Below, in pieces: positions 31,588 through 52,708 of a stretch of 64,000 nucleotides of DNA. The notes below the pieces were generated by a model. It was not told the DNA's origin. It saw only the letters and a program-made list of their open reading frames with translations, and did no database searches. Made by a program: the position numbers and the translations under genes. The number at the start of each line of letters is the position of its first letter. Within the stretch, counting starts at the first letter, position 1. Source of the DNA: Vicinamibacterales bacterium (lineage in GTDB: Bacteria; Acidobacteriota; Vicinamibacteria; Vicinamibacterales; UBA8438); NCBI GenBank assembly GCA_965263055.1, contig OZ253581.1, positions 204,337 through 268,336 of the forward strand, in the 5' to 3' direction.

Positions 31588-32790
31588 TCAGGCAGCGGGA
31601 GTAGGGCGGGCTCCGTGTGTTCCACTGAGATAGGCGGCCCAATCGTCCATCAGCCGGCGCCGCCGCTCGAACAGGTCCGAGCGGGCATAGGCGGCTTCGA
31701 CCTTATTCTGGACCACGTGCGCGAGCGCCGCCTCGACGACCTCGCGCGGGTGATTGGTCTCCTCGGCCGTCCAGTCCCGGAAGCTCGAACGAAAGCCGTG
31801 CGGGACGCCGCCGATCTCCAGGTCCCTGAGCAGCCCCGACAGCGCCATATCGGCCAGCCGCTTCCCCCGCTCGCTCGGGAACACCAGCGCATGGCCGTCG
31901 CCGAGCGCGCGCGCCGCGTCGAGGATCTGGGCGGCACGCCGGCACAGGGGAACCCGGTGTTCCCGCTTGGCCTTCGTGCGCGTGGCCGGGATGGTCCAGA
32001 CGTGGTTCTCCGCGTCGACCTCGGCCCACTGCGCCCCGCGGACCTCACCGGATCGCGCCGCCGTGAGCACGAGGAACTCGAAGGCGAGCGTCACCACGGG
32101 CGGAGCCCCCGACGCCTGCACCGCGCCGATGGCCGCCGCCACGTCGCGATGCGGCAGCGCCCGCATGTGCTGGACCAGATGCTGCTGCGGGCCCAGGACC
32201 GGCCCGATGCGGTCACAGGGGTTGTCGGCTCGCAGGTCCATCGCCACGGCCCATTCCATCACCGTGCTGATGCGTTCGCGCACCCGCCGCGCCGTCGCCG
32301 GCCGGACATGCCAGACGGGCCGCAGCGTCTCGATCACGTCGGCGCTCGTCACCTCGGACACCGGCAGCTGGCCAATGCGCGGGAACGCGAACCGCGTCAG
32401 GCTCGACATCCAATCCTTGCCGTACTTCGGATTGCGCCAGCCGGGCTGCATCTGCGTCCAGACTTGCTCGACGGCGGCGGCGAAGGTCGGCGTGCGCTGG
32501 AGACGGCGCTTCTCGGCGAGCGGGTCGCCACCGGCGCGGGCGAGCTTGCGGTTGGCGAAGGCGAGCGCGCGGGCCTCCTTGAGCGAGACGAGCGGGAAGC
32601 CGCCGAGCCCGAGTTCGCGGCGGCGTCCGCGGATGGCGATCCGCTGGACCCAACTCCGGCTGCCGGACGGCTGGACGTCGAGGTACAAGCCCTGGCCATC
32701 GCAATACCGGCCGGCCGCGGCGACGGTGCGGACGAAGGCGGTCGAGAGGGCGTGTTCGGGCTGGCGCTTGGGGGGTTGAGTCGGCAGCAT
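31588..32790 (-). CDS. P4-like tyrosine integrase with arm-binding domain
   Basis: GRYCDGQGLYL..GRRRELGLGGFP.VSLKEAR; LTAARSGE, KAKREH, PHGFRSSF, LAH..AAYARSD. Confidence 0.95.
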   Translation of the reverse strand: MLPTQPPKRQPEHALSTAFVRTVAAAGRYCDGQGLYLDVQPSGSRSWVQRIAIRGRRRELGLGGFPLVSLKEARALAFANRKLARAGGDPLAEKRRLQRTPTFAAAVEQVWTQMQPGWRNPKYGKDWMSSLTRFAFPRIGQLPVSEVTSADVIETLRPVWHVRPATARRVRERISTVMEWAVAMDLRADNPCDRIGPVLGPQQHLVQHMRALPHRDVAAAIGAVQASGAPPVVTLAFEFLVLTAARSGEVRGAQWAEVDAENHVWTIPATRTKAKREHRVPLCRRAAQILDAARALGDGHALVFPSERGKRLADMALSGLLRDLEIGGVPHGFRSSFRDWTAEETNHPREVVEAALAHVVQNKVEAAYARSDLFERRRRLMDDWAAYLSGTHGARPTPAA

Positions 32791-32794
32791 ACTT

Positions 32795-32961
32795 TCCACC
32801 GTTATATCCACCGTTACGTGGTGGAATGCATTGGATGTTATAGGTCGCTCTGGCTTGTGTCAAGCCAAGATAAACTGGAATAACTATCTATAAATGAGAT
32901 AGTTATAGACGTCATGGGATGTTGCTGGACGACTCACGCTGACGATATATGGTGGACACGG
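32795..32961 (-). other. Integrase attachment region: arm repeats, palindrome and TCCACCA tail
   Basis: TCCACCGTTA at 32795-32804 and 32807-32816; ATAACTATCT-N7-AGATAGTTAT at 32880-32906; minus-strand TCCACCA at 32950-32956. Confidence 0.6.
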
Positions 32962-33832: not shown

Positions 33833-36800
33833 CTACCAGCCCAACGTGCCCCGGCCGACGGCTCCGTTGCTTGCGCCCCCCAGCAGCGGACTCTCGCGGC
33901 GCTGCGCGTCGATGCCCAGCTCGAACGTCAGGTTCTCCGGCTTCAGCACCCCGAGACCGTAGCCGAGCCGGTAGTCCCGCCCGTGCTCGGACGTGCTGAA
34001 GCCGACCCGCGGCGTCCCGACAAAACGCCTGCCCATCGGCAGCCCGTAGCCGACCTCGCCATCGAGGCGGTTGCCCGACGCGACGCCGCCGGACGCCAGC
34101 CCCGCCATCGTCTGCCGGCCCCACAGCGCCTGGGCGCCGCTCGTCGCCTGCCCGCCCCACGACGGCGCCACCCGCGCCATAAAGCCCAGCGGCGTCGACG
34201 GCGTCGGGTTGTAGCTCAGCGACAGCGCCATGCCCCGCTCGCGGAACCCCTCGGCCTGGTGCAGCACCAGCGTCCGCACGCGCACGTCCACCGCCAGCCC
34301 GGACCCCGCATCCGACACGATCAGGCCCAGGCCAACGTCCATGCCGGCGCCGGTCTCGGCGTCCCCGCCGTCGTGCCGCAGCCCCACCTCGACGCTTGGC
34401 TTGAGCGACAGCCGGCCGGCGAGCGTGTAGGCGCGCGAGCCTTCGAGCCCCGTCCGGAAGCGGGTCACCGCCGTGTCGGTCGCCTTCAGGCGCCCCGCCG
34501 CGCCGTCGACGCCGTCGATCGACGTGCCGACCCACAACGCATCGGCCTTGAACGCCAGCGCGAAGCCGCCCGCACCGCCAGCGACCAGCTCGCCCCGCGT
34601 CCCCGCCGCCGCCATCGCCATCGACAGGCCCGACTCCAGGGCCGGACCGCCCTGCGGCGTCAGCAGCAGCCCGCCCGACCCGTAGCCGGCCACGCCCCAC
34701 ACCGTGACGCGGTCGGTCGCCTTGTAGCCGAGCCACGGGTACAGGCCCGTCACCGACGAGGCCACCTGGCCGCCGGCGGACCCCGTGTACTCGCCCAGGC
34801 CCCGGCTGTGCGACAGCGACAGGCCCGTCACCAGCGGCCCCGTCGCGTAGTCGGCCCCGACCATCGTCGTGCGCACGTCGCCGCCCAACGACAGCGCGCC
34901 CTCGCGCCCGGAGAAGCGCGACCGCGCCCCGCGGCTCCAGAACGAAAGGATGCCGCCGTGGCCCGTCTCGCGACCCAGCTCGAAGGCCGAGCCGGTCAGC
35001 ACGTCGCCGCCGCCGAGGCCCATCCGTGCGAGTCCGCCGCCATTGAACTGGCTGTCCGGGCGGGACCCGCCGCCCAGCGGGCCGGCGACCATGCCCATCG
35101 GACCCGACGCCGCGGCCAGGCGCCCGTCGCCGGCCAGCCCCGACATCCCGAGCGGCGCCGTCCCGGTCGCCGACGCGCCGGACAAAGAACCGCCGGCGCC
35201 CGCACCCATCGGCCCCGCGCCGGCCACCCCGCCGAGCCGGCGCAGGAAGCTGAGCGCGATGTCGCGCTCCATGCCGCGCCGCAGCTCCCGGCCCGCGAAC
35301 CGGCCCCGGAAGCCCGGCGCGCGCGGCGCCGCCAGCCGCTCTTCCACGTGCTCCACCACATGCACCGCCGCCGTCCGCCCGAACCGCGCCAGCAGCGCCC
35401 GCGGCATCGAATCGTGGTTCGCGATCGTCCCGGTGGCCTCGCCGTCGGCCAACCGTCCCCCCGAGGGGTTGGACAGCCGCAGCGTCAGCGTCTCCTCGCC
35501 CTCGTCGTGGGCGTCGTCGAACACCGCCACCTCGATCGTCTTCGACGACTCGCCCGCCCGGAACTTCAGCGTCCCGCTCGCCGCCCGGTAGTCGTCGCCC
35601 GCGTGCGCGCTGCCGTCCGCCGTCGCGTAGTCCACCGTCAACGCGGCGCTCGCCGCGCGGCTGAGCGTGACGGCGAAGGCCAGCAGGGCGCCTGAGTTCT
35701 CGTCCACCCGCGCATCGGCCACCGCGATGCCCACCGAGCCGGCCACCGTCGCCGACAGCGCATGCGACAGCGGCCTGCCGTCGTCGGTGCAGATCGCCCC
35801 GCTCGCGTCGCAGTCGGTCGTCTCCGGCAGCCGGACGGTCAGCGCCTCGTGCGAGGCCGGCTCGATGGTGATCTTCCACAGGTCGCGGCGGCCGTCGACC
35901 CGTCGCGCCCTGGTGACGTCGCCGCCCGTCACCGTGAACGACGCGTCGCGCACCGTCTTGTAGCTGATACTGATCCCGTCGCTGAACGCCACGCGGAAGC
36001 TGAACGACCCCTGGCCGCGGTGCTCTGCCGGCATGCCCTCGAAGCTCGCCGTCAGCGGCTCCGGCGCCGCGGCGACGGCATCGGTGGCCGCGCTGGTGAG
36101 GCGCTCCTCGTGGCCGGCGTCGTCGGTGAAGCTGACCCGGACCTTCAGCCGCTCGCCTTCGTCGGCGTCCACCGCCGTGTAGGTGGAGCCGGTCGCCCCC
36201 TGAATATCGGTGTCCGTCCGGATCCACTGGTAGGCGAAGCCCGCGGTGTCCAGCCCGTCGGCGTCGGAGATGCCCGACGTCGAGGCGGTCAGCGCCTCCC
36301 CGACCTGCGGCGTCCCGCTGATCGTCGGCGCGCCCGCCGCCGCCGTGTTGCTCTCCGGCTCGTCCGCCGGGCCGGCCACCGTCGCCGAGGGACTGTTGCT
36401 CAGCCGCCGGCCGTGCTCCCCCGTGGTGCAGATCGCCCCGGAGACCTCGCACGCGCGCCCCGCCGGCAGCGTGATCGCCACGTCTCCGTCCGAGTCGGGC
36501 GCGACCGTGATCTCCCACCGGTCGTAGCGCCCGTCCACCCCGCGCACCTCGGTCACGGCGCCCCCGCTCACCGTGAACGCATCGTCGCGCAGCGCCTGGT
36601 AGTCGATGCCGATGTCCTCGCTGAAGGCGACATGGAAGCGGAACGCGCGCTCGCCGTCATGCGCCCCCGGCACCCTCTCGAAGCTCGCCGTCAGCGCCTG
36701 GTCCTCCTCCGTCTGGCTCTCCGGACCCGGGCCGTTCACGATGGCCGACGCCCCGGTCGACAGGGCTCGGCCGTCCGCGGTGCAGACCGCCCCGTCCGCC

Positions 36801-39800
36801 GCGCACTCCGCCGCCGGGGCCAGCGTGATCGACAGCGCCTCGCGGGTGTCCGGCGTGACCGTGATCGCCCACACGCCGGTCTCCCCGTCGACGCGGGCCG
36901 CGCCGGTCACGGCGCCGCCCTCCACCGTCAGGACGCGCGTCCGCATGGCCTCGGGCGTCACCGAGACCGCCTCGCTGAACACGAGGCGGACGGTGAACGC
37001 GGTCTCGCCGTCGTGCGCCTCCGGCAGCCCCTCGAACGCCGCCGTCAGCGGCTCCGCCGCCCCGCCGTGTGACGAACCCTCGGCGGCGGTGACCGTGGCC
37101 GTCCCCGCGCGCAGCTCCGGCCGGACCTCGTACAGGTGTTCTTTGTCCGGATTGTCCGGAGCCAGGGGATACGGCATCACCTCGACGGTGACGGCGCTGT
37201 TCGGCTCGGGCCCGCCGCCGTCGTTCACGGTGTCCAGTACCACCGGTATCGTCGCGTTCCCGTCCCCGAAATGGACGTTCTCGTACCAGTATCCTTCGGG
37301 GCTGCGCCCTTCCGGCGGGAGCATGTCGCCAGTCTCGCTGATCCGCAGGATAACCATCAGCCGGCCGTGGGGCTGGTCGCGCGACAGCGCGAAGCGCAGC
37401 GGTTCTCCTTCCTCCACCGAGCGGGTGTCCGCTTCGATCCAGACCGTTTGCCGACCGACCGCCGTCCCCAGGGCCGTGACCACCGCGCTGGTGCCGCCGT
37501 CCTTGTCCACCGAGCGCACCTGGAACTCGTAGGTCGTCCACGCCGTCAACTCCTTCAGCAGGACCGAGTTGTAGTTTCTGATCTCGCTCGTCCCGGGAAG
37601 CATCGTCTGGTTCACGGTGGTCCAGTCCACCGTCCAGGTGCTCGCGTCGCGGACGCGGTACCGGTACTGGTGGCGATCCACCAGCTCGTGCGATGCGTCG
37701 TCGGGGTTTCTCCACCAGCCCAAGCGAATCTCGCCGGGCAGCAAGGGCTCCGCATTCACGTCCTGCGGCGGGGGGAGCGCGGCGTTCGTCGCGGGCGGGC
37801 CCGCTGCAACGGTGGTGGCGGCGTCCGAGGGGTCCGACCAGTCGCTCGGCGTCTCGCCGTTGAGTGCCTGCACCCGCACCTGGTACTCCGTGTTCGCCGT
37901 CAGCCCGGTGATGGTCGTGGCGGTGCCCGTGCCCGTGTGCATCCAGTTGGTCCAGGTGCCGCTCGTCCCCTGGCGGTACTCCACGGCGTAGCCGGTGATG
38001 TCGGGGCCCCCGTTGAGCCCCGGCTTCGTCCAGCTCGCGTCCAGGCTGTCGGTCGCGCCCGAGACCGCCGCCAGCGTCGGCTTCGCCGGTTTGTCCGGCT
38101 GCTCGTCCTCGTCCGTGACGGTGATCTCCACGTCGATGGTGGCGCTCGCCGTGCCGTCCGACGCCCTCACCGTCACCGAGTAGGACGATTGCTCCTCGTG
38201 GTCGTAGGTCACTCCCGTCTTGGTCCGGATCTGGCCCGACGTGGAGACGATGTCGAACAACGCCACGTCCGTGCCCTCCAGGGTGTATGTCAGCGTGTCG
38301 CCGGGGTCGACGTCGGTCGCCGTCACCGCCGTGCCAACGTCGACGCCCGCGGCGCTGTTCTCGGCCACCCCGCGCGTCGGCGCCGTCTCGGAGAACACCG
38401 GGGCGTTGTTGGAGGCCGAATTCGTGGGCACCGCGACCGAGGGGTCCGACCAGGCGCTCGGCGTCTCGCCGTTGAGCGCCTGCACCCGCACTTGATACTC
38501 CGTGCTCGCCGTCAGCCCGGTGATCGTCGTCGTGGTCCCGGTGCCGCTGTGCGTGACGTTCTCCCAGTCGCCGCTCGTGCCCTCGCGGTACTCCACGGTG
38601 TAACCGATGAGCTCCGGGCCGCCGTTCCGCCCCGGCTCGGTCCAGGTCACGTCCAGGCTGTCGGTCGTGCCCGAGGTCGCCGACACCGTCGGCTTCGCCG
38701 GTGTGTCCGGCTGCTCGTCCTCGTCCGTGACGGTGATCTCCACGTCGATGGTGGCGCTCGCCGTGCCGTCCGACGCCCTCACCGTCACCGAGTAGGACGA
38801 TTGCTCCTCGTGGTCGTAGGTCACTCCCGTCTTGGTCCGGATCTGGCCCGACGTGGCGACGATGTCGAACGACGCCACGTCCGTGCCCTCCAGGGTGTAT
38901 GTCAGCGTGTCGCCGGGGTCGGCGTCGGTCGCCGTCACCGCCGTGCCAACGTCGACGCCCGCGGCGCTGTTCTCGGCCACCCCGCGCGTCGGCGCCGTCT
39001 CGGAGAACACCGGGGCGTTGTTGGCGGCCGCATTGGTGGGCACCGCGACCGAGGGGTCCGACCAGGCGCTCGGCGTCTCGCCGTTGAGCGCCTGCACCCG
39101 CACCTGGTGCTCCGTGTTCGCCGTCAGCCCGGTGATCATCGTCGTGGTCCCGGTGCCGCTGTGCGTCCAGTTCACCCACGTGACGCTCGTGACCACGCGG
39201 TACTGCACGCCGTAGCCGATGATGGCCGGGCCGCCGTTCAGCCCCGGCTCGGTCCAGGTCACGTCCAGGCTGTCGGTCGTGCCCGAGGTCGCCATCACCG
39301 TCGGCGTCGCCGGTATGTCCGGCTGCTCGTTCGCGTCCATCACCGTCACCGTGATCGTCTGGGTCGCCGTCTGCTCCCGGTCGCCCGTGCCGCTGGTCGC
39401 CTGCACCACCACCAGATAGGCGTTGTCGGTGTTCGCGTCCTGCGGGTCCTCGTAGTTGGGCGCCGCCTGGAACGTCAGCACGCCCGACGTCGAGCCGATG
39501 GAGAACAGCGCCTGGTCCGCGCCGCCGCTGAGCGCGTAGTCGGTGATGGCGTCGCCCGTGTCGCTGTCCGACGCCACCACCGTGCCCACCGCCGTCTGGT
39601 TCTCCGCCGGGTTGAACATCGCCGCCGAGGTGAACGAGGGCGCCGCGTTGGCGTCCGTCTCGCCGCTGCCCGAAGCGGACCAGCCGCCCGTGCCCTCGGC
39701 GTTCGTCGCCCGCACCTGCACCTGGTAGCTCGTGTCCTCCAGAAGCCCCGTGAGGATCGCCGTGAGGGCGGTGCCGATGTGGCTCCCGTCACTCCACGGC

Positions 39801-42800
39801 TCGCTCGCGCCCGCCCGGTACTGCACGTCGTAGTCCGTGATCTCCGGGCCGGCGTTGTCCGGCGCCGACCAGCTCACGTTCAGGCTCGTCACCGACGCCG
39901 GCGACACCGACGGCGCATCCGGCGCGGCCGGCGCCTCGGTGTCGTCGTCCATCACCGTCACCGTGATGGTCTGGGTCCCTGTCTGCTCCCGGTCGCCCGT
40001 GCCGCTGGTCGCCTGCACCACCACCAGATAGGCGTTGTCGGTGTTCGCGTCCTGCGGGTCCTCGTAGTTGGGCGCCGCCTGGAACGTCAGCACGCCCGAC
40101 GTCGAGCCGATAGAGAACAGCGCCTGGTCCGCGCCACCGCTGAGCGCGTAGTCGGTGATGTCATCGCCCGTGTCGTCGTCCGACGCCACCACCGTGCCCA
40201 CCGTCGTCTGGTTCTCCGCCGGGGTGAACGTGTCTGACGAGGTAAACGAGGGCGCCATGTTCGCGTCCGTCGCGTCGCTGCCCGAATCGGACCAGTCGCT
40301 CGTGCCCTCGTCGTTCGTCGCCCGCACCTGCACGTCGTAGGACGTGTTCTCCTGCAGGCTTCCGATCGTCGTCGACCGAGCCGTGATCGTCGTGTTGGTC
40401 ACCTCGACCCACGCGCCCGGCGGCAAGGTCGTCCGGTAGCGGTAGTCGTAGTCCGTGATCTCCGGGCCGGCGTTGTCCGGCGCCGACCAGCTCACGTTCA
40501 GGCTCGTCACCGACGCCGGCGACACCGACGGCGCATCCGGCGCAGCCGGCGCCTCGGTGTTATCGTCCCTCACCGTCACCGTGATCGCCTGGGTCGCGGT
40601 CTTCGCCCGCTCCCCCGCGCCGCTGCTCGCCTGCACCGTCAGCGCGTAGGTGTTGTCGGCGCCCTGGTCCTGCGGGGCCTCGAAGTTCGGCGCATCGTCG
40701 AACGTCAGCGCCCCCGACGTCGCCCCGATCGAGAAGAACCCCTGGTCCGCGCCGCCGCTGAGCGCGTAGCCGGTGATGTCGTCGCCCGCGTCGTCGTCCT
40801 CCGCCTCCACCGTGCCCACCGCCGTCTGGTTCTCCGCCGCGCCGAACGTCGCATCCGAGGTGAACGCCGGCGCCGCATTCGGTTCGTCGTTGTCGGTGAT
40901 GGTGCCCGTCGCCGTCGCGTCCGAAATCTCCGCGTTCCTCGGGTTCGACAGCGTCACCGTGAAGGTCTCGTTCGGCTCGTCGGTCGGGTCGTCGGTCGTC
41001 GACACCGTGATCGTCCCCGTCGTCTCACCCGCGGCGATGGTCAGCGTGTCGCTCGCCGCGGTGAAGTCCGTACCCGAGGTGGCTGTGTCGCCGGTCTTGA
41101 CCGACGTCGCCCAGTCCACCATCACGTCCCTGCCGCTCGCCGGCAACAGGCGCACCGTGAACTCAAGGGCGTCTCCCTCGAATGCGGAGGCGTCGTCCAC
41201 GCTCACCGATGGCTCAGGGTCGTTGTCCCGGATCGTCATCCTCCCGGTGGAGGAATCTGGCGCCAGTATTGCATTCCTCGGTTGCGACAGCGTCACCGTG
41301 AAGGTCTCTCTGTCCTCGTCGAGCGCGTCGTCGGCCACCACGTCATGCATCGTGAAGAGCAGCTCCAATCCCATTCCGGGTCTGAAGGTCACCGACCCGG
41401 TCGCCGCCGACAGGTCAACGAAGTCCGCCTCCTCCGCCGTGTCGTCCGGCTTTATCGAGGCCGTCCAGACGATTGTCACCACCTTTTCGCTCTCCGCCGA
41501 AATCGTCAACCTCGGACTCATCGTTCCGTGCTCTACCGCCGTGGCGTCACCGATGGACACCGTCGGCATCTTGTCGTCGTCCTTGATCGTGCCCTCCGCG
41601 GTTGTGGTCGCCGCAAGCGCCTCGTTCGCCTTGACCGACACCGTCACCGTGAAGGTCTCGTCGTCCTCGTCCCTGGTGTCATCCGCCGTCACCACCGTGA
41701 ACGTTGCCGTCATCTGGCCCTCCATGATCGTCTCCGTCCCGGTCGCCGCCGACAGGTCAACGAAGTCCGCCTCCTCCGCCGTGTCGCCGATCTCAATCGA
41801 TGCCGTCCAGGTCGCCGTCAAGTTCTCCCTGGCCGCTTCCGACAGCGTCACCGTGAAGGTCACGTTTCCGCCCTCGTCCCCCGAGGCATCCTCGACGCTC
41901 AGCGTCGGCAGGTCGTTGGTGCTCGCCGTCGAGGCGTCCGACCAGGCGCCCGTGCCCTCGTCGTTCGTCGCCCGCACCTGCACGTCGTAGGACGTGTTCT
42001 CCTGCAGGCTCCCGATCGTCGCCGACGGACCCGTGATCGTCGTGTCCGCCACCTCCACCCACGCGCCCTGCGGCGAGCTCGTCCGGTAGCGGTAGTCGTA
42101 GTCCGTGATGGCCGGGCCCGCGTTGTCCGGCGCCAGCCAGGTCACGCTCAGGCTCGTCACCGAGGCGCCCGACACCGACGGCGCAGCCGGCGCGTGCGGC
42201 GCCTCGTGGTCGTCGTCGGTCACCGTCACCGTGATCGCCAGGGTCACCGTCCGCTCCCGGTCCCCCGCGCCGCTGGTCGCCTGCACCTCCAACTTGTAGG
42301 TGTTGTCGGCGCCCTGGTCCTGCGCGTCCTCGAAGTTCGGCGCATCGTCGAACGTCAGCACCCCCACCGGCGGCCCGGCGGGGGCGCGGAAGATCGAGAA
42401 GAACCCCGCATCCGCGCCGCCGCTGATCGCGTAGCCCTGGATGCCGTCGTCCGGGTCATAGTCCTCTGCCTCCACCGTGCCCACCGCCGTCTGGTTCTCC
42501 GCCGCGTCGAACGTCGGCGACGAGGTGAACGCCGGCGCGGCGTTCGCGTCCGTCCTGCCGCTGCCCGCAGAGGACCAGCCGCTCGTGCCCTCGTCGTTCG
42601 TCGCCCGCACCTGCACGAAGTGGTACGCGTCCTCCTGCAGGCCCCCGATCGTCGCGCTCAACGCCGTGATCGTCGTGTCGGCCACCTCCGACCACTCGCC
42701 CACCGGCGAGTCCATCCGCTGGAAGTAGCGGTAGTCGTAGTCCGTGATGGCCGGGCCCGCGTTGTCCGGCGCCGACCAGGTCACGTTCAGGCTCGTCGCC

Positions 42801-45800
42801 GACGCCGCCGACACGTACGGCGCATCCGGCGTATCCGGCGCCTCGGTGTCGTCGTCCGTGACGTTGATGGTTACCGCGATGGTGTCGGTGCCGTCGGCAC
42901 TGTCGTCGGCCTTCACCGTCACCGAGTAGGAATTCTGCGGCGCCTCGTGGTCGTAGGTCACCCCTGTCACGGTCCGGATCTGGCCCGACGTCTCGACGAT
43001 GGTGAACGAACCCGCGTCCGTCCCCTCCAGGCTGTAGGTCAGCGTGTCGCCGCTGTCGGCGTCGGTCGCCGTCACCGCCGCGCCGACATCGGTGCCTGCC
43101 GGGCTGTTCTCCGGCACCGTGCGCGTCGCCATCGTCTCGGCGAACAGCGGGGCGTTGTTGTCGGGCGACCACAGATGCAGCGTCACCAGTGTCTCGGACG
43201 ACCAGTCCAGGCCGGTGCTGGACCATAGGTAGGACTTGCTTCCAGGGAAATAGGTCGCATCGCTGAACGCGAACGAGGTGGCGCCGACACGCAGGACTAG
43301 CTTGTCTCTGGCGGCGTCGGTGAGGGCGGCGTTCAGATTGAAGCCAAGTGCCATCGAATCTGAGACGTGCACCGAAGTGATCGTGTATCTCGTGGTTCCG
43401 TAGTCGAATTCGGTGTCGGACAAGCCGCCTATCGTGTTAAGGAATCCATCCCCGTCGCCCAACTCCCCCACCGTGACGACCCCGCACCAGAGGTCGCCGG
43501 TGTTCAGCGTGCAGGTCGAGGGCGCCGCGTTGACGGCAAAGACCTCCAGCGGCAGGCCGGAGGATTTCTCCAAGGCGTAGCCCCGATGCTCCGAGGGCAG
43601 CCCCGGCAGCGTCCCGATGTCCGCCGTGACGGCGAAGACCCCGATCCGGGTCACCGACACCGAGTCGCTGTGGACCATGCCGGCGGGAATCGTGAGCGTG
43701 GTGGCCCCGCCGTCGATCTCGCCGTTGACGACGCTTACGGGCAACGTGAGGGCGAACGGCGCGGCCGTGGGAGCGACCGCCCTGAACCGGCCCGGCTCCG
43801 CCGGCTCCAGGGATACCGCCACCGGCAGGGGAGAGCCTGGGTTGCCGTCCAGACGGAGGATCTCCAGCGACGTCAGGCCGGAGAAAACGCCCGCCTGCAG
43901 GTTGCTCAGGGAGTTCTCGCTCAGGTCGAGGGTCTCGAGCGCGATGAGGTCGTCGAAAACGCCCGCCGGCAGGTTGCTCAGGGAGTTCTCGCCCAGGAAG
44001 AGGGACTCGAGCGCGGTGAGGCCGTCGAAAACGCCCGCCTGCAGGTTGCTCAGGGAGTTGTTGCCCAGGAAGAGGGACTCGAGCGCGGTGAGGCCGTCGA
44101 AAACGCCCGCCGGCAGGTTGCTCAGGGAGTTGTCGTTCAGGAGGAGGGTCTCGAGCGCGGTGAGGGCGTCGAAAACGCCCGCCGGCAGGTTGCCCAGGGA
44201 GTTGTAGCTCAGGAGGAGGGTCTCGAGCGCGGTGAGGGCGTCGAAAACGCCCGCCGGCAGGTCGTTCAGGAAGTTGTTGCTCAGGTAGAGGGTCTCGAGC
44301 GCGATGAGGTCGTCGAAAACGCCCGCCGGCAGGTTGTTCAGGGAGTTGCCGTCCAGGGAGAGTTCCGTGAGCGCGGTGAGGGTGTCGAAAACGCCCGCCT
44401 GCAGGTCGCTCAGGGAGTTGTTGCCCAGGTAGAGGGTCTCGAGCGCGGTGAGGGTGTCGAAAACGCTCGCCGGCAGGTTGCTCAGGGAGTTGTCGTTCAG
44501 GTTGAGGGTCTCGAGCGCGGTCCGTCGAAGTCGCCCGCCTGCAGCGACGAGATGCCCGTGGAATCCAAATCCAATCCCGTGATTGCCGCCAGATGCGCAG
44601 CCGTCACCCCGCCGCAGGTGCTCACCCCCGACACTTGGGCCACGATGGCGTCGCGCACCTGCTCGGTGCGGTCGCAGAACGGCGCGGCGGCAAAGACCTC
44701 CAGCGGCAGGCCGGAGGATTTCTCCAAGGCGTAGCCCCGATGCCCCGAGGGCAGCCCCGGCAGCGTCCCGATGTCCGCCGTGACGGCGAAGCCCCCGATC
44801 CGGGTCACCGACACCGAGTCGCTGTGGACCATGCCGGCGGGAATCGTGAGCGTGGTGGCCCCGCCGTCGATCTCGCCGTTGACGACGCTTACGGGCAACG
44901 TGAGGGCGAACGGCGCGGCCGTGGGAGCGACCGCCCTGAACCGGCCCGGCTCCGCCGGCTCCAGGGATACCGCAACCGGCAGGGGAGAGACTGGGTTGCC
45001 GTCCAGACGAAGGGTCTCCAGCGACGTCAGGCCGGAGAAAACGCCCGCCGGCAGGCTGCTCAGGGAGTTGTTGTTCAGGGAGAGTTCCGTGAGCGCGGTG
45101 AGGCCGTCGAAAACGACCGCCGGCAGGTCGCTCAGGGAGTTGTTGCCCAGGTAGAGGGTCTCGAGCGCGATGAGGTCGTCGAAAACGCCCGCCGGCAGGT
45201 TGCTCAGGGAGTTGTTGTTCAGGTAGAGGGTCTGTAGCGCGGTGAGGCCGTCGAAAACGCTCGCCGGCAGGTTGCTCAGGGAGTTGCTGTCCAGGGAGAG
45301 TTCCGTGAGCGCGGTGAGGGTGTCGAAAACGCCCGCCGGCAGGTTGCTCAGGGAGTTGCTGCCCAGGTCGAGGGCCTGTAGCGCGGTGAGGCCGTCGAAA
45401 ACGCCCGCCCGCAGGTCGCTCAGGGAGTTGTTGTTCAGGTAGAGGAACTGTAGCGCGGTGAGGGCGTCGAAAACGACCGCCGGCAGGTCGCTCAGGGAGT
45501 TGCTGCGCAGGTCGAGGTACGTGAGCGCGGTGAGGCCGGAGAAGTCGCCCGCCTGCAGCGACGTGATGCCGGCAAATCCCAAATCCAAAGACGTGATTGC
45601 CGCCAGATGCGCAGTCGTCACCCCGCCGCAGGTGCTCACCCCCGACACTTGGGCCACGATGGCGTCGCGCACCTGCTCGGTGCGGTCGCAGAACGGCCCG
45701 GCGGCAAAGACCTCCAGCGGCAGGCCGGAGGATTTCTCCAAGGCGTAGCCCCGATGCCCCGAGGGCAACCCCGGCAGCGTCCCGATGTCCGCCGTGACGG

Positions 45801-46935
45801 CGAAGCCCCCGATCCGGGTCACCGACACCGAGTCGCTGTGGACCATGCCGGCGGGAATCGTGAGCGTGGTGGCCCCGCCGTCGATCTCGCCGTTGACGAC
45901 GCTTACGGGCAACGTGAGGGCGAACGGCGCGGCCGTGGGAGCGACCGCCCTGAACCGGCCCGGCTCCGCCGGCTCCAGGGATACCGCAACCGGCAGGGGA
46001 GAGACTGGGTTGCCGTCCAGACGAAGGCTCTCCAGCGGCGTCAGGCCGGAGAAAACGCCCGCCGGCAGGCTGCTCAGGGAGTTGTTGTTCAGGGAGAGTT
46101 CCGTGAGCGCGGTCAGGCCGGAGAAAACGCCCGCCGGCAGGTCGCTCAGGGAGTTGTTGCCCAAGGAGAGGGTCTCGAGCGCGGTGAGGCCGTCGAAAAC
46201 GCTCGCCGGCAGGTTGCTCAGGGAGTTGTTGCCCAAGGAGAGGGTCTCGAGCGCGGTGAGGGCGTCGAAAACGCTCGCCGGCAGGTCGCTCAGGGAGTTG
46301 CTGGTCAGGTTGAGGGTCTCGAGCGCGGTGAGGGCGTCGAAAACGCTCGCCGGCAGGTTGCTCAGGGAGTTGTTGCCCAGGTAGAGGGTCTGTAGTGCGG
46401 TGAGGGCGTCGAAAACGCTCGCCGGCAGGTTGCGCAGGGAGTTGTTGCCCAGGTCGAGGGTCTCGAGCGCGGTGAGGCCGTCGAAAACGACCGCCGGCAG
46501 GTTGCGCAGGGAGTTGCTGCCCAGGTCGAGGTACGTGAGCGCGGTGAGGCCGGAGAAGTCGCCCGCCTGCAGCGACGTGAAGCCGGCAGATCCCAAACCC
46601 AAATACGTGATTGCCGCCAGATGCGCAGCCGTCACGTTGGCGCAGGCGCTGACCCCGGGCACCGCCGCCACGATGGCGTCGCGCACCTGCTCGGTGCGGT
46701 CGCAGACCGGCGGGGTCTGCGCCTCGGCGGTCGAGGGGAGGGCGAGCGCGCCGAAGAGCGCGAGGCACGCCGCGGCGGCCAGCCCCCGGGCGAAGCCAAC
46801 GAGCCCGCGGCCCCCGGCGGCGGATGCGGTCTGAGAAGAGGGACGGCCGCCCCGGCGGGGCGGCAGGCGGTCAGGCGGGGATGGCGGGCGGTTGTGCTCC
46901 CGCGCCCGCAAGGCGACCGCTCCGATTGTTCTCAT
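33833..46935 (-). CDS. Giant (~4370 aa) surface adhesin: 3 LRR modules, cadherin, FN3, Calx-beta and Ig-like repeats, C-terminal autotransporter-like barrel; frameshifted at ~44521
   Basis: Extended signal peptide (GGAAGGGG RBS, cleavage AEA-Q); 24-aa LRRs; ENS..VG..VTATDAD..YDHE cadherins; SLxVxW..Y.VQVRA FN3; LAFAVTL..VDYATADG..DDAHDEGEE Calx-beta; ends in W; 4-bp deletion relative to sister repeats. Confidence 0.9.
38090..39140. repeat. Near-identical 612-bp-period cadherin+FN3 tandem duplication (another pair at ~39340-40230)
   Basis: CTCGTCCTCGTCCGTGACGGTGATCTCCACG at ~38102 and ~38714; second pair at ~39360 and ~39972. Confidence 0.85.
43535..46620. repeat. Three near-identical LRR-module duplications built from 72-bp cassettes (7, 7 and 9 full repeats)
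   Basis: Recurrent GAAAACGCCCGCCGGCAGGTTGCTCAGGGAGTTG; ~300-bp linker domain repeated at ~43540, ~44690 and ~45705. Confidence 0.9.
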
Positions 46936-47098
46936 CGTCGTCCCCTTCCGATTTCAGCCGCGCTCCATGACACCGTCGTCTCGAAATTCGTCGAGGTGTC
47001 GAACAACACTGACCGCCGAGCGTCCGTCCGGAACGTCGAACGCGCCCACTCACCAAGGGCCCGGCCTTGACCATTGGCATGTGCTCTCCGTCCACTGA

Positions 47099-47132
47099 TT
47101 AGCTCGCGATAGTTGTAGTTATCGCGAGCTAA
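47099..47132 (+). other. lox-like recombination site L (13-8-13)
   Basis: TTAGCTCGCGATA-GTTGTAGT-TATCGCGAGCTAA, perfect 13-bp inverted arms. Confidence 0.92.
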
Positions 47133-47167
47133 CGGTCTGGCTGTATGTCATTTGAACGGTGGTACTT

Positions 47168-48151
47168 ATGCAGTTTTCACCCCAAGACGTGTCCGAGCGT
47201 CGCGACCCGGCCACTCAGAAGTCACACAACGGCGAGCGCCTTGCCACCTATCTGGAGGACGCCCACGGCGCCCTCAGCGGGAATACCGTGCGGGCGGTGA
47301 GCGCGGACCTGGAACGGTTCACGGCGTGGTGCGCGGAGCGGGGGCTTTCGCCGCTGCCCGCGCGCGCGGCCACGGTGGTGGCGTACATCGAGGCGATGGC
47401 GAGCGGCCGTGCGCCGGCCACCGTGCGCCGCTACGTCTCGAGCGTCGCCACCGTGCACAAGGCGGCCGGGGAACACAGCCCGCTCGAGCACATAACCGTG
47501 CGGCGGGCCCTAAAACGCATGCATCGGCAGAGGGGGTGCCGGCAGACGCAGGTGCAGGGGCTGACCTGGGCGCTCCGCCGGCGCCTCGTGGAGGCCGCCG
47601 GCCACCGACTGATCGACGTGCGGAACCGCGCGATCCTGGCTGTGGCCTACGACGCCATGCTCCGCCGCTCCGAGCTGGTCGCGCTGCACGTCGTTGATGT
47701 GACGACAGAACGGGACGGATCGGCCTCGCTCCTCGTGCGCCGCGCGAAGACCGATCCGGAGGGCGGCGGCGCGATGCTGTACCTGCACCGCGACAGCGTG
47801 ACGCTGCTACGCGGGTGGCTGAGCGCGAGCGGGATCGCCAGCGGGCCGCTCTTCCGTTCCCTCCGCAAGGACGGCACGGTGGGCGGGAGGCTCCATGCGA
47901 GCCAGGTGCCGCGCCTCTACAAGGCGATGGCCGAACGCGCCGGGCTGCCGGCGGAGATGGTGCGGCGCCTCTCGGGGCACAGTCCCCGGGTGGGCGCGGC
48001 GCAGGACATGATCGCCTCGGGGATCGGGATCCCGGCGATCATGCAGGCCGGGCGCTGGAAGAGCGCCGCGATGGTGCAGCGCTACGGCGAGCGGCTCCTC
48101 GCCAAGCGGAATGGCGCCGCCCAGCTGGCACGGCTTCAGAAACGCAGATGA
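47168..48151 (+). CDS. Cre-like tyrosine site-specific recombinase
   Basis: N-terminal SAM-like domain (SGNTVRAV..FTAWC, APATVRRYVSSV); catalytic RRSE, AKTD, HSPR and Cre-type Trp/Tyr in AGRWKSAAMVQRY; ATG 47168 (alternative GTG 47159). Confidence 0.9.
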   Translation: MQFSPQDVSERRDPATQKSHNGERLATYLEDAHGALSGNTVRAVSADLERFTAWCAERGLSPLPARAATVVAYIEAMASGRAPATVRRYVSSVATVHKAAGEHSPLEHITVRRALKRMHRQRGCRQTQVQGLTWALRRRLVEAAGHRLIDVRNRAILAVAYDAMLRRSELVALHVVDVTTERDGSASLLVRRAKTDPEGGGAMLYLHRDSVTLLRGWLSASGIASGPLFRSLRKDGTVGGRLHASQVPRLYKAMAERAGLPAEMVRRLSGHSPRVGAAQDMIASGIGIPAIMQAGRWKSAAMVQRYGERLLAKRNGAAQLARLQKRR

Positions 48152-48171
48152 GCCCCGAAGACCCCGCCGGG

Positions 48172-48200
48172 TTGCCTTGGGTCTCCGGTCACGATATTGT
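48172..48200 (+). promoter_or_regulatory. Putative sigma70 promoter inside the invertible segment, pointing outward through site R
   Basis: TTGCCT (48172-48177), 17-bp spacer, TATTGT (48195-48200). Confidence 0.55.
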
Positions 48201-48206
48201 TTGCCG

Positions 48207-48240
48207 ATAGCTCGCGATAACTACAACTATCGCGAGCTAT
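48207..48240 (-). other. lox-like recombination site R (13-8-13), inverted relative to L
   Basis: ATAGCTCGCGATA-ACTACAAC-TATCGCGAGCTAT; spacer is the exact reverse complement of the L spacer. Confidence 0.92.
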
Positions 48241-48301
48241 CTGGAACATTAAGCGATCTGTTGTGAGCGTATTGTGACTGCACGGGCGAGTTTCATGTCC
48301 C

Positions 48302-50734
48302 GTGCGTGACTTTTCGTCCGAAGCGCGCTATCCTCCACTCTCCCCTGCGGCGCGGCAGCACCCACCCGGGCGCCTTCGGCCGGCTTCGGGCACCCCGTCG
48401 GCGGGAGTGGGAGCATTGAACGGTCGAGACCCGACCAGGCTGTCCGATGAGCGCATCTCCCGCCTGAGCGCGGCGATTCTCCGCATCAGCCAGAGCCTCG
48501 AGCTGGCCACCGTGCTGGAGGAGGTCGTCGAGAGCGCCCGCGCGCTGACCGGCGCCCGCTCCGGCGTGATCACGACGCTCGACGAGCGGGGAGCGATCGA
48601 GGACTTCGTCACCTCCGGCCTTCCTCCCGAGGCGTGCCGGCAGATGGTCGCGTGGCCCGACGGGGCGCGACTCTTCGCACACCTGCGGGACCAGCCGACG
48701 CCGCTCCGGGTGGCGGACCTGCCCGGCTACCTGCGATCGCTCGGCCTCTCCCCGAACCCCTTGAGCTCGAAGACGCTGCAGGGGACCCCGCTGCGCTATC
48801 GGGGCGAGCATCTCGGCAACTTCTTTCTCAGCGACAAGGACGACGGCGAGGCGTTCACGGGTGAGGACGAGGAGATCCTGGTGCTGTTCGCCTCGCAGGC
48901 GGCGACGGCCGTGGCCAACGCGCGCACGTACCGCGACGTCGAGCGGGCGCGGGCCGGCCTCGCGGCGCTCATCGAGACCTCGCCGGTCGGCGTCGCGGTG
49001 TTCGACGCCGCCACCGGCCATCCGGTCTCGTTCAACCGCGAGGCGCGGCGCATCGTCGAGGGGCTCCGCACCCCCGGCCGCCCACCGGAGCAGCTGCTCG
49101 AGGTGATCACGTGCCGGCACGCGGACGGGCGGGAGTTCTCCCTCGAGGCGCTGCCCCTGGCCCGGCAGCTCGAGGGTGCCACGACGATGCGGGCCGAGGA
49201 GGTCGAGCTGTCGGTGCCCGACGGCCGGAGCGTCCGGACGCTCCTCAACGTCACGCCCATCCGTGCGGAGGGCGGAGAGGTCGTCTCGGTCGTCGTCACC
49301 CTGCAGGACCTGGCGCCGCTCGAGGAGCTGGAGCGGCAGCGGGCGGAGTTCCTCGGGATGGTGAGCCACGAGCTCCGCGCCCCCCTGACCTCGATCAAGG
49401 GCTCGACGGCGACCGTGCTGGGCGCCGTGCCGGTCCCGCCCCAGGCCGAGATGCTCCAGTTCTTCCGCATCATCGACGGGCAGGCCGACCACATGCGCGG
49501 CCTGATCGCGAACCTCCTGGACGCGGGGAGCATCAAGGCGGGCACACTCACGGTGGCGCCCGAGCCCTCGAACGTCGCCACGCTGGTGGACCGGGCCCGC
49601 AACACCTTCTTGAGCGGCGGAGGCCGGCACGCCGTCCTCCTCGACCTCCCGCCGGACCTGCCCCGGGCGATGGCCGACCGCGAGCGCATCGTGCAGGTGC
49701 TGAACAACCTCTTCGCGAACGCGGCCCGCCACGCGCCGCCCTCGTCCCCGATCCGGGTCGAGGCGGCGTGCGCGGGCCGCGACATCGTGCTCTCGGTTTC
49801 GGACGAGGGCCGGGGGATCCTGCCCGACCGGCTCCCGCATCTCTTCCGCAAGCGCGCCGGCCCCGCCGGAGGCACCGGGCTCGGCCTCGCCATCTGCAAG
49901 GGCCTCGTGGAGGCGCACGGCGGCCGTATCCGCGCCGAGAGCGGGGGGACGGGCCAGGGCGCGCGCTTCACCTTCACCCTTCCCGTGGCCGGGGCGGCCG
50001 TTCCCGAGGCGGCCCCGCCCAGCGGCCGGCCGCGCCCGCCCGGGGAGCGGGCGGAGAAGACACGCGTCCTCGTGGTGGACGACGACCCGCAGACGCTCCG
50101 CTACGTGCGGGACGTCCTCTCCCAGGCGGGCTACGCCCCGCTCGTCACGGGCGATCCGGACGGACTCCCCAGCGTCATCCGCGCCGAACAGCCCCGCCTC
50201 GTCCTCCTCGACCTCATGCTCCCCGGCACGGACGGGATCGAACTGATGAAGCGGGTCCCGGAACTCGCCGATCTCCCGGTCATCTTCATCTCCGGCTACG
50301 GCCGGGACGAGACGATCGCCAAGGCGCTCGAGAGCGGCGCGGCCGACTACATCGTCAAGCCGTTCTCGCCGACCGAACTCGTGGCGCGGGTCCAGGCGGC
50401 GCTCCGGAGCCGGGCCGCGCCCGAGACCGTCGTGCACGGGGACCTCGCCGTCGAGTACGGCCGGCGCCGGGTGAGCGTGGCCGGCCGCGCGGTCGCGCTC
50501 ACGGCCACGGAATTCGAACTGCTGCGCGTCCTCTCGGTCAACGGGGGACGGGTAGTGACGACGGCGGCGCTCCTCCGCCAGGTGTGGGGGCGCCGGGGCG
50601 TGGACGACACCGATCGCGTGCGCACCGTCGTGAAGAAGCTCCGGGCAAAGCTCGGCGACGACGCGGCCAAGCCGACCTACATCTTTACCGAGCACGGGGT
50701 CGGCTACCGCCTGGCGACCCCGAGCGGGGCGTAG
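48302..50734 (+). CDS. Hybrid sensor kinase-response regulator (GAF-PAS-HisKA-HATPase-REC-OmpR wHTH)
   Basis: SHELRAPLTSIKG, NLFANAARH, GTGLGLAI, VVDDD, LLDLMLP, DYIVKPF, LTATEFELL, HGVGYR; true start may be TTG 48416. Confidence 0.92.
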   Translation: MRDFSSEARYPPLSPAARQHPPGRLRPASGTPSAGVGALNGRDPTRLSDERISRLSAAILRISQSLELATVLEEVVESARALTGARSGVITTLDERGAIEDFVTSGLPPEACRQMVAWPDGARLFAHLRDQPTPLRVADLPGYLRSLGLSPNPLSSKTLQGTPLRYRGEHLGNFFLSDKDDGEAFTGEDEEILVLFASQAATAVANARTYRDVERARAGLAALIETSPVGVAVFDAATGHPVSFNREARRIVEGLRTPGRPPEQLLEVITCRHADGREFSLEALPLARQLEGATTMRAEEVELSVPDGRSVRTLLNVTPIRAEGGEVVSVVVTLQDLAPLEELERQRAEFLGMVSHELRAPLTSIKGSTATVLGAVPVPPQAEMLQFFRIIDGQADHMRGLIANLLDAGSIKAGTLTVAPEPSNVATLVDRARNTFLSGGGRHAVLLDLPPDLPRAMADRERIVQVLNNLFANAARHAPPSSPIRVEAACAGRDIVLSVSDEGRGILPDRLPHLFRKRAGPAGGTGLGLAICKGLVEAHGGRIRAESGGTGQGARFTFTLPVAGAAVPEAAPPSGRPRPPGERAEKTRVLVVDDDPQTLRYVRDVLSQAGYAPLVTGDPDGLPSVIRAEQPRLVLLDLMLPGTDGIELMKRVPELADLPVIFISGYGRDETIAKALESGAADYIVKPFSPTELVARVQAALRSRAAPETVVHGDLAVEYGRRRVSVAGRAVALTATEFELLRVLSVNGGRVVTTAALLRQVWGRRGVDDTDRVRTVVKKLRAKLGDDAAKPTYIFTEHGVGYRLATPSGA

Positions 50735-52410: not shown

Positions 52411-52621
52411 CGTTGGGGGCGGGCTGCATCCTATGTGAGGATGCCGCAAGTATGTGACGAATGTGTGTCGGCGACGGAACCGCCCGGTTAATTCACGTCA
52501 GCTTCACGCAACGGTGACATGGACGACACGAGCGGCGCGTACAGCAGCCGGGTCGTGCTCACGACGGTCATCGACTCGCTGTCCCTCTTCGGTCACGAGC
52601 AGGTCGGAACGGGGAGAAGAG

Positions 52622-52708
52622 TGCCGAGGGTGGGGATTGAACCCACACGGCCCCTGAGGGCCACAGGATTTTAAGTCCCGTGCGTCTGCCTGATTCCGCC
52701 ACCTCGGC
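52622..52708 (-). tRNA. tRNA-Leu(TAA)
   Basis: GCCGAGG acceptor stem; anticodon loop CT-TAA-AA; long variable arm; GGTTCAATCC; CCA not encoded. Confidence 0.95.

Follow-up and report, generated by a model that had tools for sequence, protein, structure and literature searches.

What is a gene for a Cre-type recombinase doing on a bacterial chromosome between two lox-like sites that face each other? The question arises in a 64-kb stretch of DNA (the window) from the 4,346,423-bp genome of a Vicinamibacterales bacterium, where an earlier note, made from the letters of the window, had described a self-contained 1.14-kb unit that flips itself. We refer to this cassette, bounded by sites L and R (Table 1), as W1 and to a second cassette of the same genome as W2. 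Our comparison of sequences points to a Cre/lox-type self-inverting module, most likely a heritable, biased ON/OFF switch between a giant adhesin-like gene on one side and a sensor/regulator gene on the other, a reading to which we give about an even chance. The neighbourhood of these two genes is consistent with such a switch.

The two sites share the 34-bp geometry of loxP. Their 13-nt arms are perfectly palindromic and their 8-nt spacers are exact reverse complements of each other, and a repeat search returned them as a single inverted pair with 36-nt arms, 97% complementary and 1068 nt apart; both methods thus agree with the earlier note, which was also correct that the sequence is unlike loxP, since arms and spacers both differ. 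The 12-nt core of the arm has four exact copies in the window, all within sites L and R, and only three further matches there, each with two mismatches. Genome-wide, 13 perfect 13-8-13 palindromes were found, and because four of them are the sites of W1 and W2, the sites are not products of chance. No solo site was detected in the genome, in which a search allowing up to three mismatches returned only the four sites of the two cassettes.

The sole coding-like open reading frame (ORF) between the sites lies on the + strand and ends at 48151. It could begin at GTG 47159 or ATG 47168, and the ATG is probably the start, since in W2 the common ATG is closely preceded by a stop codon. Pfam reported Phage_integrase (E = 3.8e-16), a SAM-like N domain (Phage_int_SAM_1, E = 1.2e-5) and no other family, which rules out an invertase of the serine class (Hin/Gin/Cin). 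A sequence search of the PDB matched 18 entries, 17 of them Cre or Cre-derived Tre (E = 2.7e-25 to 1.3e-23) and the last XerD; the best Cre match (E = 2.7e-25) extends over residues 41-316, versus an E-value of 1.8e-4 for XerD, and scores against the NCBIfam Xer models were far under their cut-offs (48 bits vs 220). In the HMMER alignment, residues R169, K197, H274, R277, W300 and Y309 (numbered from GTG 47159) stand opposite R173, K201, H289, R292, W315 and Y324 of Cre, which are the R-K-H-R-W-Y catalytic residues with tryptophan at the fifth position as named in PMC10250229. Across an 11-member alignment of the family, K197 is present in 10 of 11 and the other five residues do not vary. The ORF list and the Cre alignment therefore uphold the one intact recombinase with a full catalytic set that had been noticed earlier, and the E-values its placement in the Cre family. 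By sequence, the enzyme is a Cre-type tyrosine recombinase, 28% identical to P1 Cre; its catalysis at sites L and R we infer. An AlphaFold2 model built from the 11-sequence alignment was too poor for a fold search (mean pLDDT 55.9, pTM 0.37).

The same arrangement recurs in relatives. Matches to the recombinase were found in 6 of 41 related genomes and in 3 genomes of a 401-genome sample of the phylum. Four of the six genomes (G005, G007, G011 and G038) contributed 10 further cassettes, 10 of 10 with both sites, so that in the first 12 cassettes, counting the two of this genome, the sites were inverted around the gene in all 12. A scan limited to one genome per species gave 95 relatives, of which 80 were kept, seven of them at the same places as loci fetched earlier. 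Both sites are inverted around the gene in 73 of the 80, and the position homologous to site L bears a site in 73 of 80. The seven exceptions comprise two loci interrupted where a contig or record stops (L054, L075), a truncated gene (L114), two loci with one or a displaced site (L100, L103) and two distant homologues without such a site (L111, L113). The site-gene-site layout that the earlier note had proposed to look for in homologues is therefore real, with one orientation prevailing. Together with W1 and W2 the 73 loci make up a 75-locus set, and the addition of L024, L027 and L029 gives a union set of 78 two-site cassettes. The recombinase frame is open in 76 of these 78 (72 of the 73 loci, W1, W2, L024 and L027) and broken in L029 and L065.

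A strong link between enzyme and sites comes from covariation. Across the 75-locus set, 63 spacer pairs are exact reverse complements, drawn from 24 different spacers (66 of 78 once the three added cassettes are counted). The 12 imperfect pairs contain 16 mismatched positions, 10 of which are at spacer position 1 or 8. In Cre, positions 1 and 8 are outside the 6-bp overlap that is required to match, and the concentration of mismatches there suggests the same stagger in this family. The arms occur as the variants CTCGCGATA, CTCTCGATA, CTCCCGATA and CTCCTGATA, which mostly change together within one cassette. Covariation of the spacers would otherwise be hard to explain, and it argues strongly that sites L and R are the targets of the enzyme and recombine with each other; as the matched sites are inverted, their recombination would result in inversion.

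These data also bear on the idea that the sites are binding sites only, either operators of a recombinase-derived regulator or relics of plasmid resolution, with no inversion at all. Spacers that remain exact reverse complements through 24 variants, with mismatches at positions 1 and 8, have no explanation on that idea, nor does the retention of all six catalytic residues (five invariant, K197 in 10/11) or the occurrence of breakpoints at the sites in two cases described below (L060/L065 and L086). It does accommodate an orientation that is nearly uniform across assemblies, plasmid relatives that use one site, and a solo half-site in 43 of 47 loci of the long type of cassette, in which arms are used outside full sites. 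On balance we consider it very improbable.

If the module inverts itself, the 327-aa recombinase would bind all four 13-bp arms, two per site, bring sites L and R into synapsis by looping the ~1.07-kb interior, and carry out strand exchange in the central 6 bp of their matched spacers, with the outcome that the segment carrying its own gene is inverted. In the assembled orientation the recombinase transcription unit would be directed at the regulator. After a flip this unit, which is without a U-tract terminator, would be directed across the site towards the giant gene, which is 163 bp away, and the module would act as a heritable, strongly biased ON/OFF switch between the giant gene and the sensor/regulator gene. 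The recombinase probably represses its own expression as well, because the inner arm of site L ends 10 bp before the box at 47143 and 35 bp before the ATG.

Indirect signs of flipping come from the flanks of relatives. In L086, a tail of ~165 bp, which L066, L069, L081 and L085 have at site R, is reverse-complemented on the site L side and missing from the cassette's own site R side, an arrangement exactly as a flip predicts. A 2.8-kb flank that lies past site R in L060 is found reverse-complemented past site L in L065 (98.8% identical); it carries genes for a Sel1-repeat lipoprotein and a PBP4-like protein. The break coincides with the site, and the two cassettes are 94% identical. When the flanks of all loci were compared, 588 same-side homologous pairs and 32 cross-side alignments were obtained, the latter involving only L060/L065, L086 and L093. 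In addition, the genome of the window holds a decayed third locus (C1 ~622063-622468) upstream of a 6750-aa open frame, within a giant-gene locus that spans ~602067-622468. Its 5' region is 94% identical to window positions 46660-47049, a copy of the left flank is joined via the 9-mer CGCGCCCAC to a 64-bp recombinase fragment, inverted, and the locus is collinear with an in-silico flipped copy minus 300 bp between direct 9-mers.

Some of these layouts can be read in another way, namely that the main selected reaction takes place between different cassettes of one chromosome, with large inversions that shuffle the surface gene at an expression site by moving a giant-gene 5' end to the site R side of another cassette. 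L060 is flanked on either side by secreted-protein genes of the site L type and L093 by regulators of the site R type, as the two reciprocal products of an inversion between site R of one cassette and site L of another would be; L067, with a large divergent ORF at site L and an LRR gene at site R, would fit as well, as would the several cassettes with identical sites per genome. The genomes of L060, L065 and L086, however, hold one cassette each, and the reciprocal partner product was not found, the L093 genome having two cassettes of which the other is ordinary. Nor would this reaction explain why each cassette has its own matched spacers where spacers differ, as between the G038 cassettes with ACTGGAAT and ACTAGAGT. 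We regard it as improbable.

Several observations weigh against a self-inverting switch. Among loci with a recognisable tail, ~57 are arranged one way (23 short-type loci with W1 and W2, 18 of class A and 13 of class B), compared to L086, which is flipped relative to the class-B loci, and L093, which has a tail on both sides and is ambiguous; orientation is thus nearly uniform, and frequent unbiased switching is unlikely. A sequencing-run search returned 24 runs, 17 of them with at least half of the sampled words and from 9 studies, and the four runs examined (X1, X3, X6 and X8) gave only Logan contigs of 142-920 nt, bounded at 47102, 48210 or 48224. No flipped molecule or strand-changing joint is listed among these contigs, which break at the sites because the 32-nt core common to both exceeds k = 31. 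Contigs of the W2 type span site L in the assembled orientation (e.g. X8 record 26) and are uninformative on rare flipped molecules, and the metagenome scans did not give the same locus in two orientations. One illegitimate inversion between 9-bp inverted repeats would account for the fossil of the third locus too, and the spacers of W2 do not match perfectly, differing at position 1 only. Neither a sigma-70 consensus promoter nor an intrinsic terminator was found in 46700-48500, and an outward promoter-like element near site R, which a looser scan picked up in 7 of the 12 first cassettes, matches at only 8-9 of 12 positions and is not conserved in the short type; with promoter and terminator scans empty or inconsistent, we treat the regulatory read-out as conjecture. 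Furthermore, some cassettes pair outer arms of one variant with inner arms of another, which fits exchange or mobility too, and homology is often bounded exactly by the outer site ends (e.g. L025 vs L028, 0-1424 of 1425).

The last two observations would fit a cassette that is mainly a selfish spreading module, whose inverted sites act as ends, either for recombinase-mediated cassette exchange or for recombination with sites located elsewhere, and whose gene neighbourhood reflects compatible sites or islands and not regulation. Along with the L060 and L093 layouts, they are compatible with such mobility and with recombination between cassettes alike. Spread is evident. Genomes carry two to five copies, W1 is on a tRNA-Leu island together with a P4-type integrase, and the W1 protein shares 56-65% identity with copies from within its genus, family and order but 82-88% with copies labelled Longimicrobiales, Ca. 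Palauibacter, Vicinamibacterales and Ca. Latescibacterota. This greater closeness to copies with other phylum-level labels than to its own lineage indicates that the module has moved horizontally. Mobility does not account, however, for the steady pairing with a divergent giant gene (54/73), and exchange requires a resident site pair, so it cannot found new loci. Solo sites are absent from the genome, the short-type tail and kinase/regulator gene travel with the cassette, and W1 and W2 share both flanks, as a segmental duplication would. Target-site duplications are lacking in 69 of 73 loci, and the other four show 2-3 bp, the same as the rate in shuffled controls. Selfish spread as the main role is therefore unlikely in our estimate, though it deserves more weight than either alternative above. 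An insertion sequence or transposon, also considered as a candidate, is unlikely for want of such duplications at the borders.

The proposed self-inverting family itself is broad. Its records are labelled Longimicrobiales, Ca. Palauibacter, Vicinamibacterales/Terriglobia/Bryobacterales, Ca. Latescibacterota, and Alpha- and Gammaproteobacteria, which span at least four phylum labels, and some are labelled as sponge bins. The protein database contains 2032 relatives at E <= 1e-20 among 8000 candidates scored, named only 'site-specific integrase' or 'tyrosine-type recombinase'. Viral contigs yielded one weak match only, and a phage link is unsupported. The layout recurs beside giant adhesin-like genes in many uncultured bacteria, which points to a DNA-flipping switch that is portable and to a natural supply of new recombinase/target pairs. 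Taken further, the family might be a horizontally mobile, self-inverting phase-variation device that sets giant adhesins against sensor/regulators in at least four phyla, partly in association with sponges, and that offers a panel of pairs, with arm variants (CGCG, CTCG, CCCG and CCTG cores) and 24 spacer variants, mutually orthogonal. This wider proposal is tentative, and we think it possible rather than probable.

Two types of cassette can be distinguished. The short type (~1135-1167 bp; 26 loci, W1 and W2) is without an extra half-site, and in 23 of the 26 loci a conserved tail, with a direct repeat, a promoter-like element and a Shine-Dalgarno sequence, connects it to a GAF-PAS-HisKA-HATPase-REC-Trans_reg_C gene. 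The long type (~1225-1425 bp) comprises 47 loci, counting two enlarged ones of 2846 and 3296 bp, and in 43 of 47 a solo half-site, the fifth, follows the gene, possibly as an accessory site; a convergent LuxR-type regulator is often found next. In one enlarged cassette (L027, 2846 bp), a gene for a Mutator-family (IS256-like) transposase has been inserted downstream of the recombinase gene and ahead of site R. Next to site L, a divergent ORF starts between -650 and +260 bp from the site in 54 of 73 loci, and 50 of these ORFs are at least 500 aa long. The first 450 aa of divergent ORFs (n = 66) gave Calx-beta and fn3 (10 each), SWM_repeat (7), cadherin-like (5), LRR_8 (4) and cadherin (3) domains, while the 3' neighbours (67 scanned) contained GAF-PAS-HisKA in 18 and GerE in at least eight. 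In L067 (labelled Ca. Azotimanducaceae), a large divergent ORF lies past site L and a gene for an LRR protein directly after site R, and by their position both flanks could be switch targets.

Within the genome, W2 (C1:2676654-2677797) encodes a recombinase 98% identical to that of W1, and the DNA of the two is 97.1% identical over an alignment that begins 199 bp outside site L and ends 136 bp outside site R. Each is located upstream of, and divergent from, a gene for a large surface protein, and the 5' ends of these genes are related. Past the W2 tail, insertion sequence (IS) fragments (HTH_Tnp_1, Transposase_mut) take the place of the kinase/regulator gene. The term 'self-contained' in the earlier note was accordingly too narrow, as the conserved unit runs ~136 bp past site R, where it enters the promoter/operator-like region of the hybrid kinase/regulator gene; it also adjoins a giant adhesin-like gene on a tRNA-Leu island, is present in several copies and has spread horizontally.

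Table 1. Coordinates, in the window, of the cassette W1 and the features around it.
Feature	Position	Strand	Description
Giant secreted adhesin-like gene	33833-46935	-	Divergent from recombinase gene; signal-peptide-like N-terminus
Spacer, giant-gene ATG to site L	46936-47098		163 bp; kept in second and third genome copies
Site L (S5)	47099-47132		Lox-like 13-8-13, TTAGCTCGCGATA-GTTGTAGT-TATCGCGAGCTAA; adjoins 5' end of recombinase gene; spacer GTTGTAGT
Box GTATGTCATTTG	47143-47154	+	Between site L and ATG; candidate core promoter/leader of recombinase gene
Cre-type tyrosine recombinase gene	47168-48151 (stop included)	+	327 aa from ATG; assigned by Pfam, Cre alignment and conserved residues
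GC-rich hairpin	48150-48185	+	Just past stop codon, without U-tract
Site R (S3)	48207-48240		Lox-like 13-8-13, ATAGCTCGCGATA-ACTACAAC-TATCGCGAGCTAT; spacer ACTACAAC, reverse complement of site L spacer
Conserved tail	48241-48376	+	Outside invertible segment, up to +136 past site R
Hybrid sensor kinase/response regulator gene	48416-50734	+	772 aa from TTG 48416; GAF, PAS, HisKA, HATPase_c, Response_reg, Trans_reg_C

The non-coding parts of the cassette are conserved to different extents. The left spacer is 97% identical to that of W2 from -199 and 94% identical to the third locus, and the block around the box is conserved across 27 short-type cassettes, whereas the outer 5' flank is not. The hairpin after the stop codon is kept in relatives although its paired bases change in the alignment, and a 111-nt stretch folds with z = -4.99, the site hairpin being included in that stretch. 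The tail contains a direct repeat, TTGTGAG (48261-48267) and TTGTGAC (48272-48278), followed by a promoter-like GTGACT-17-TATCCT (48306-48311 and 48329-48334). It is conserved with W2 up to +136 and in an alignment of 28 loci, and its motif is present with up to two mismatches in 23 of 26 short-type loci. A different promoter candidate in the window, TTGCCT-17-TATTGT, was dropped, as it is not conserved in short-type cassettes. Rfam gave no match within 46000-49000.

The closest solved relative is Cre itself. The likeness to Cre/loxP extends to the aligned catalytic set with tryptophan in fifth place and to the 13-bp arms with an 8-bp asymmetric spacer, and the distance of less than 100 bp between gene and target is that of Cre-type systems. 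Phage P1 carries one loxP site, for cyclisation and dimer resolution, and Dre/rox and Vika/vox are other characterised Cre-type recombinases. In contrast to Cre/loxP, arm and spacer sequences differ here at 28% protein identity, two inverted sites bracket the gene, and the cassette is chromosomal, multi-copy and beside genes for giant surface proteins and regulators, with an activity that is predicted. Among the plasmid-borne relatives, which are 44-48% identical over 89-98% of the protein, is WP_012778790.1 of Methylorubrum extorquens DM4 p1METDI. It has a related 12-8-12 site, TTGCCTGCGATA-ACACCATC-TATCGCGGGAAA, 40-71 bp upstream of its gene, but the site is single, with no downstream partner within 2.5 kb, and a toxin-antitoxin pair adjoins. 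Such a layout could be the ordinary resolution type from which the two-site cassette derives. Since plasmid relatives of this identity range may carry just one site, upstream of the gene, the second, inverted site would appear to be a derived feature of the clade.

Other invertible systems resemble the cassette in architecture. Hin/hix inversion redirects transcription toward a surface-protein gene, and Hin, Gin and Cin are serine recombinases that use 26-bp sites and a Fis-dependent enhancer. As in these systems, the gene is inside or at the edge of its own inverted segment, so the comparison with Salmonella hin drawn in the earlier note applies to the logic of an invertase gene within its own segment and fails for the enzyme family, which is here that of the Cre-type tyrosine recombinases. 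The Flp/FRT system of the yeast 2-micron plasmid has a tyrosine recombinase with tryptophan at the same catalytic position, encoded between inverted, target-bearing repeats; the plasmid is eukaryotic and Flp inversion serves copy-number amplification. There too a gene segment inverts itself, but sequence kinship with our enzyme is not detectable, and the cassette is not a member of the hin or the Flp/FRT family. In the E. coli systems fimS/FimB-FimE and ipuS/IpuA-IpuB, the invertible element is short, has short inverted repeats at its ends and does not include the recombinase genes, whereas here the gene is cargo and the repeats are full lox-like sites. In these systems tyrosine recombinases invert a promoter element beside an adhesin or autotransporter gene (PMC6083910).

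The earlier note had also raised the possibility of a new recombinase/target pair, which stands insofar as the sites are unlike loxP and the family was not found in our literature search. Mining in PMC10250229 was directed at single palindromes within 1 kb of Cre-type genes and gave ~500 predicted pairs. A Cre-type gene bracketed by inverted lox-like sites was not described in the literature searched, the supplementary tables of PMC10250229 being outside that search. The main interest lies in the covarying natural diversity of sites and enzymes and in the link to giant surface proteins. If the enzymes are active on their own sites, the family would be a natural source of numerous Cre-type recombinase/target pairs in which arms and spacers have co-diverged, pairs that are currently obtained one by one through mining or directed evolution, and the covarying spacers, mismatched mainly at positions 1 and 8, predict the cleavage stagger. 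It would also mean that a Cre-type enzyme is used for chromosomal self-inversion, not for plasmid or phage resolution, and would offer a mechanism, open to testing, by which uncultured symbionts that are closed to genetic study could express their giant LRR/cadherin/FN3 'eukaryotic-like' surface proteins heterogeneously.

The genes on either side of W1 have features of their own. The giant gene occupies two overlapping frames, an 812-aa ORF from 46935 to 44497 with an LRR_8 match (1.2e-93) and, in another frame from 46768, a 4311-aa ORF with matches to fn3 (5.6e-83), Cadherin (2.5e-48) and Calx-beta (3.9e-29). The 4311-aa frame (33833-46768) is out of register upstream of ~44600. The frame break is either a real frameshift (a pseudogene, or a slippage site in repetitive LRR DNA) or an assembly error. 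At 46009-46644, six copies of a tandem repeat with a 72-bp period, 63-86% identical to the reference copy, which is counted among the six, encode, at the gene's 5' end, LRR units of 24 residues. Stop-to-stop frames run through site L, and a start of the giant gene inside the cassette was considered; it is ruled out, as signal-peptide-bearing starts are outside the site. The hybrid kinase/regulator gene is the sole full-length copy in the genome. Two fragments at C1:1294460-1295101, 74% identical to parts of it, are apparently a decayed paralogue, and no match to the recombinase was found beside them.

Further downstream, the 3' end of a tRNA-Leu(taa) gene (52621-52708) marks the limit of synteny with three congeneric genomes, all of which lack the W1 segment. 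A P4-type integrase gene (31591-32811; Arm-DNA-bind_3, Phage_int_M, Phage_integrase) is located ~20 kb from the tRNA gene, and the region of ~31.5-52.6 kb looks like a strain-specific island at tRNA-Leu; a direct repeat of the tRNA end of at least 14 nt was not found.

Metagenome scans were made with two queries. A 28-nt stretch of left flank and outer arm gave no matches, and the site pattern with a free spacer gave 29 loci, which include four two-site family members at 57-65% identity (L122, L128, L138 and L139) and a 34%-identical relative by one site (L126). The other 24 of the 29 are unrelated palindromes. Among these, AATCCTCGCGATA-N8-TATCGCGAGGATT recurs in L123, L124, L127, L135, L136, L137, L142 and L143 (beginning AGTCC in L135 and L143); no relative of the recombinase was found near these copies, and this palindrome may mark another element.

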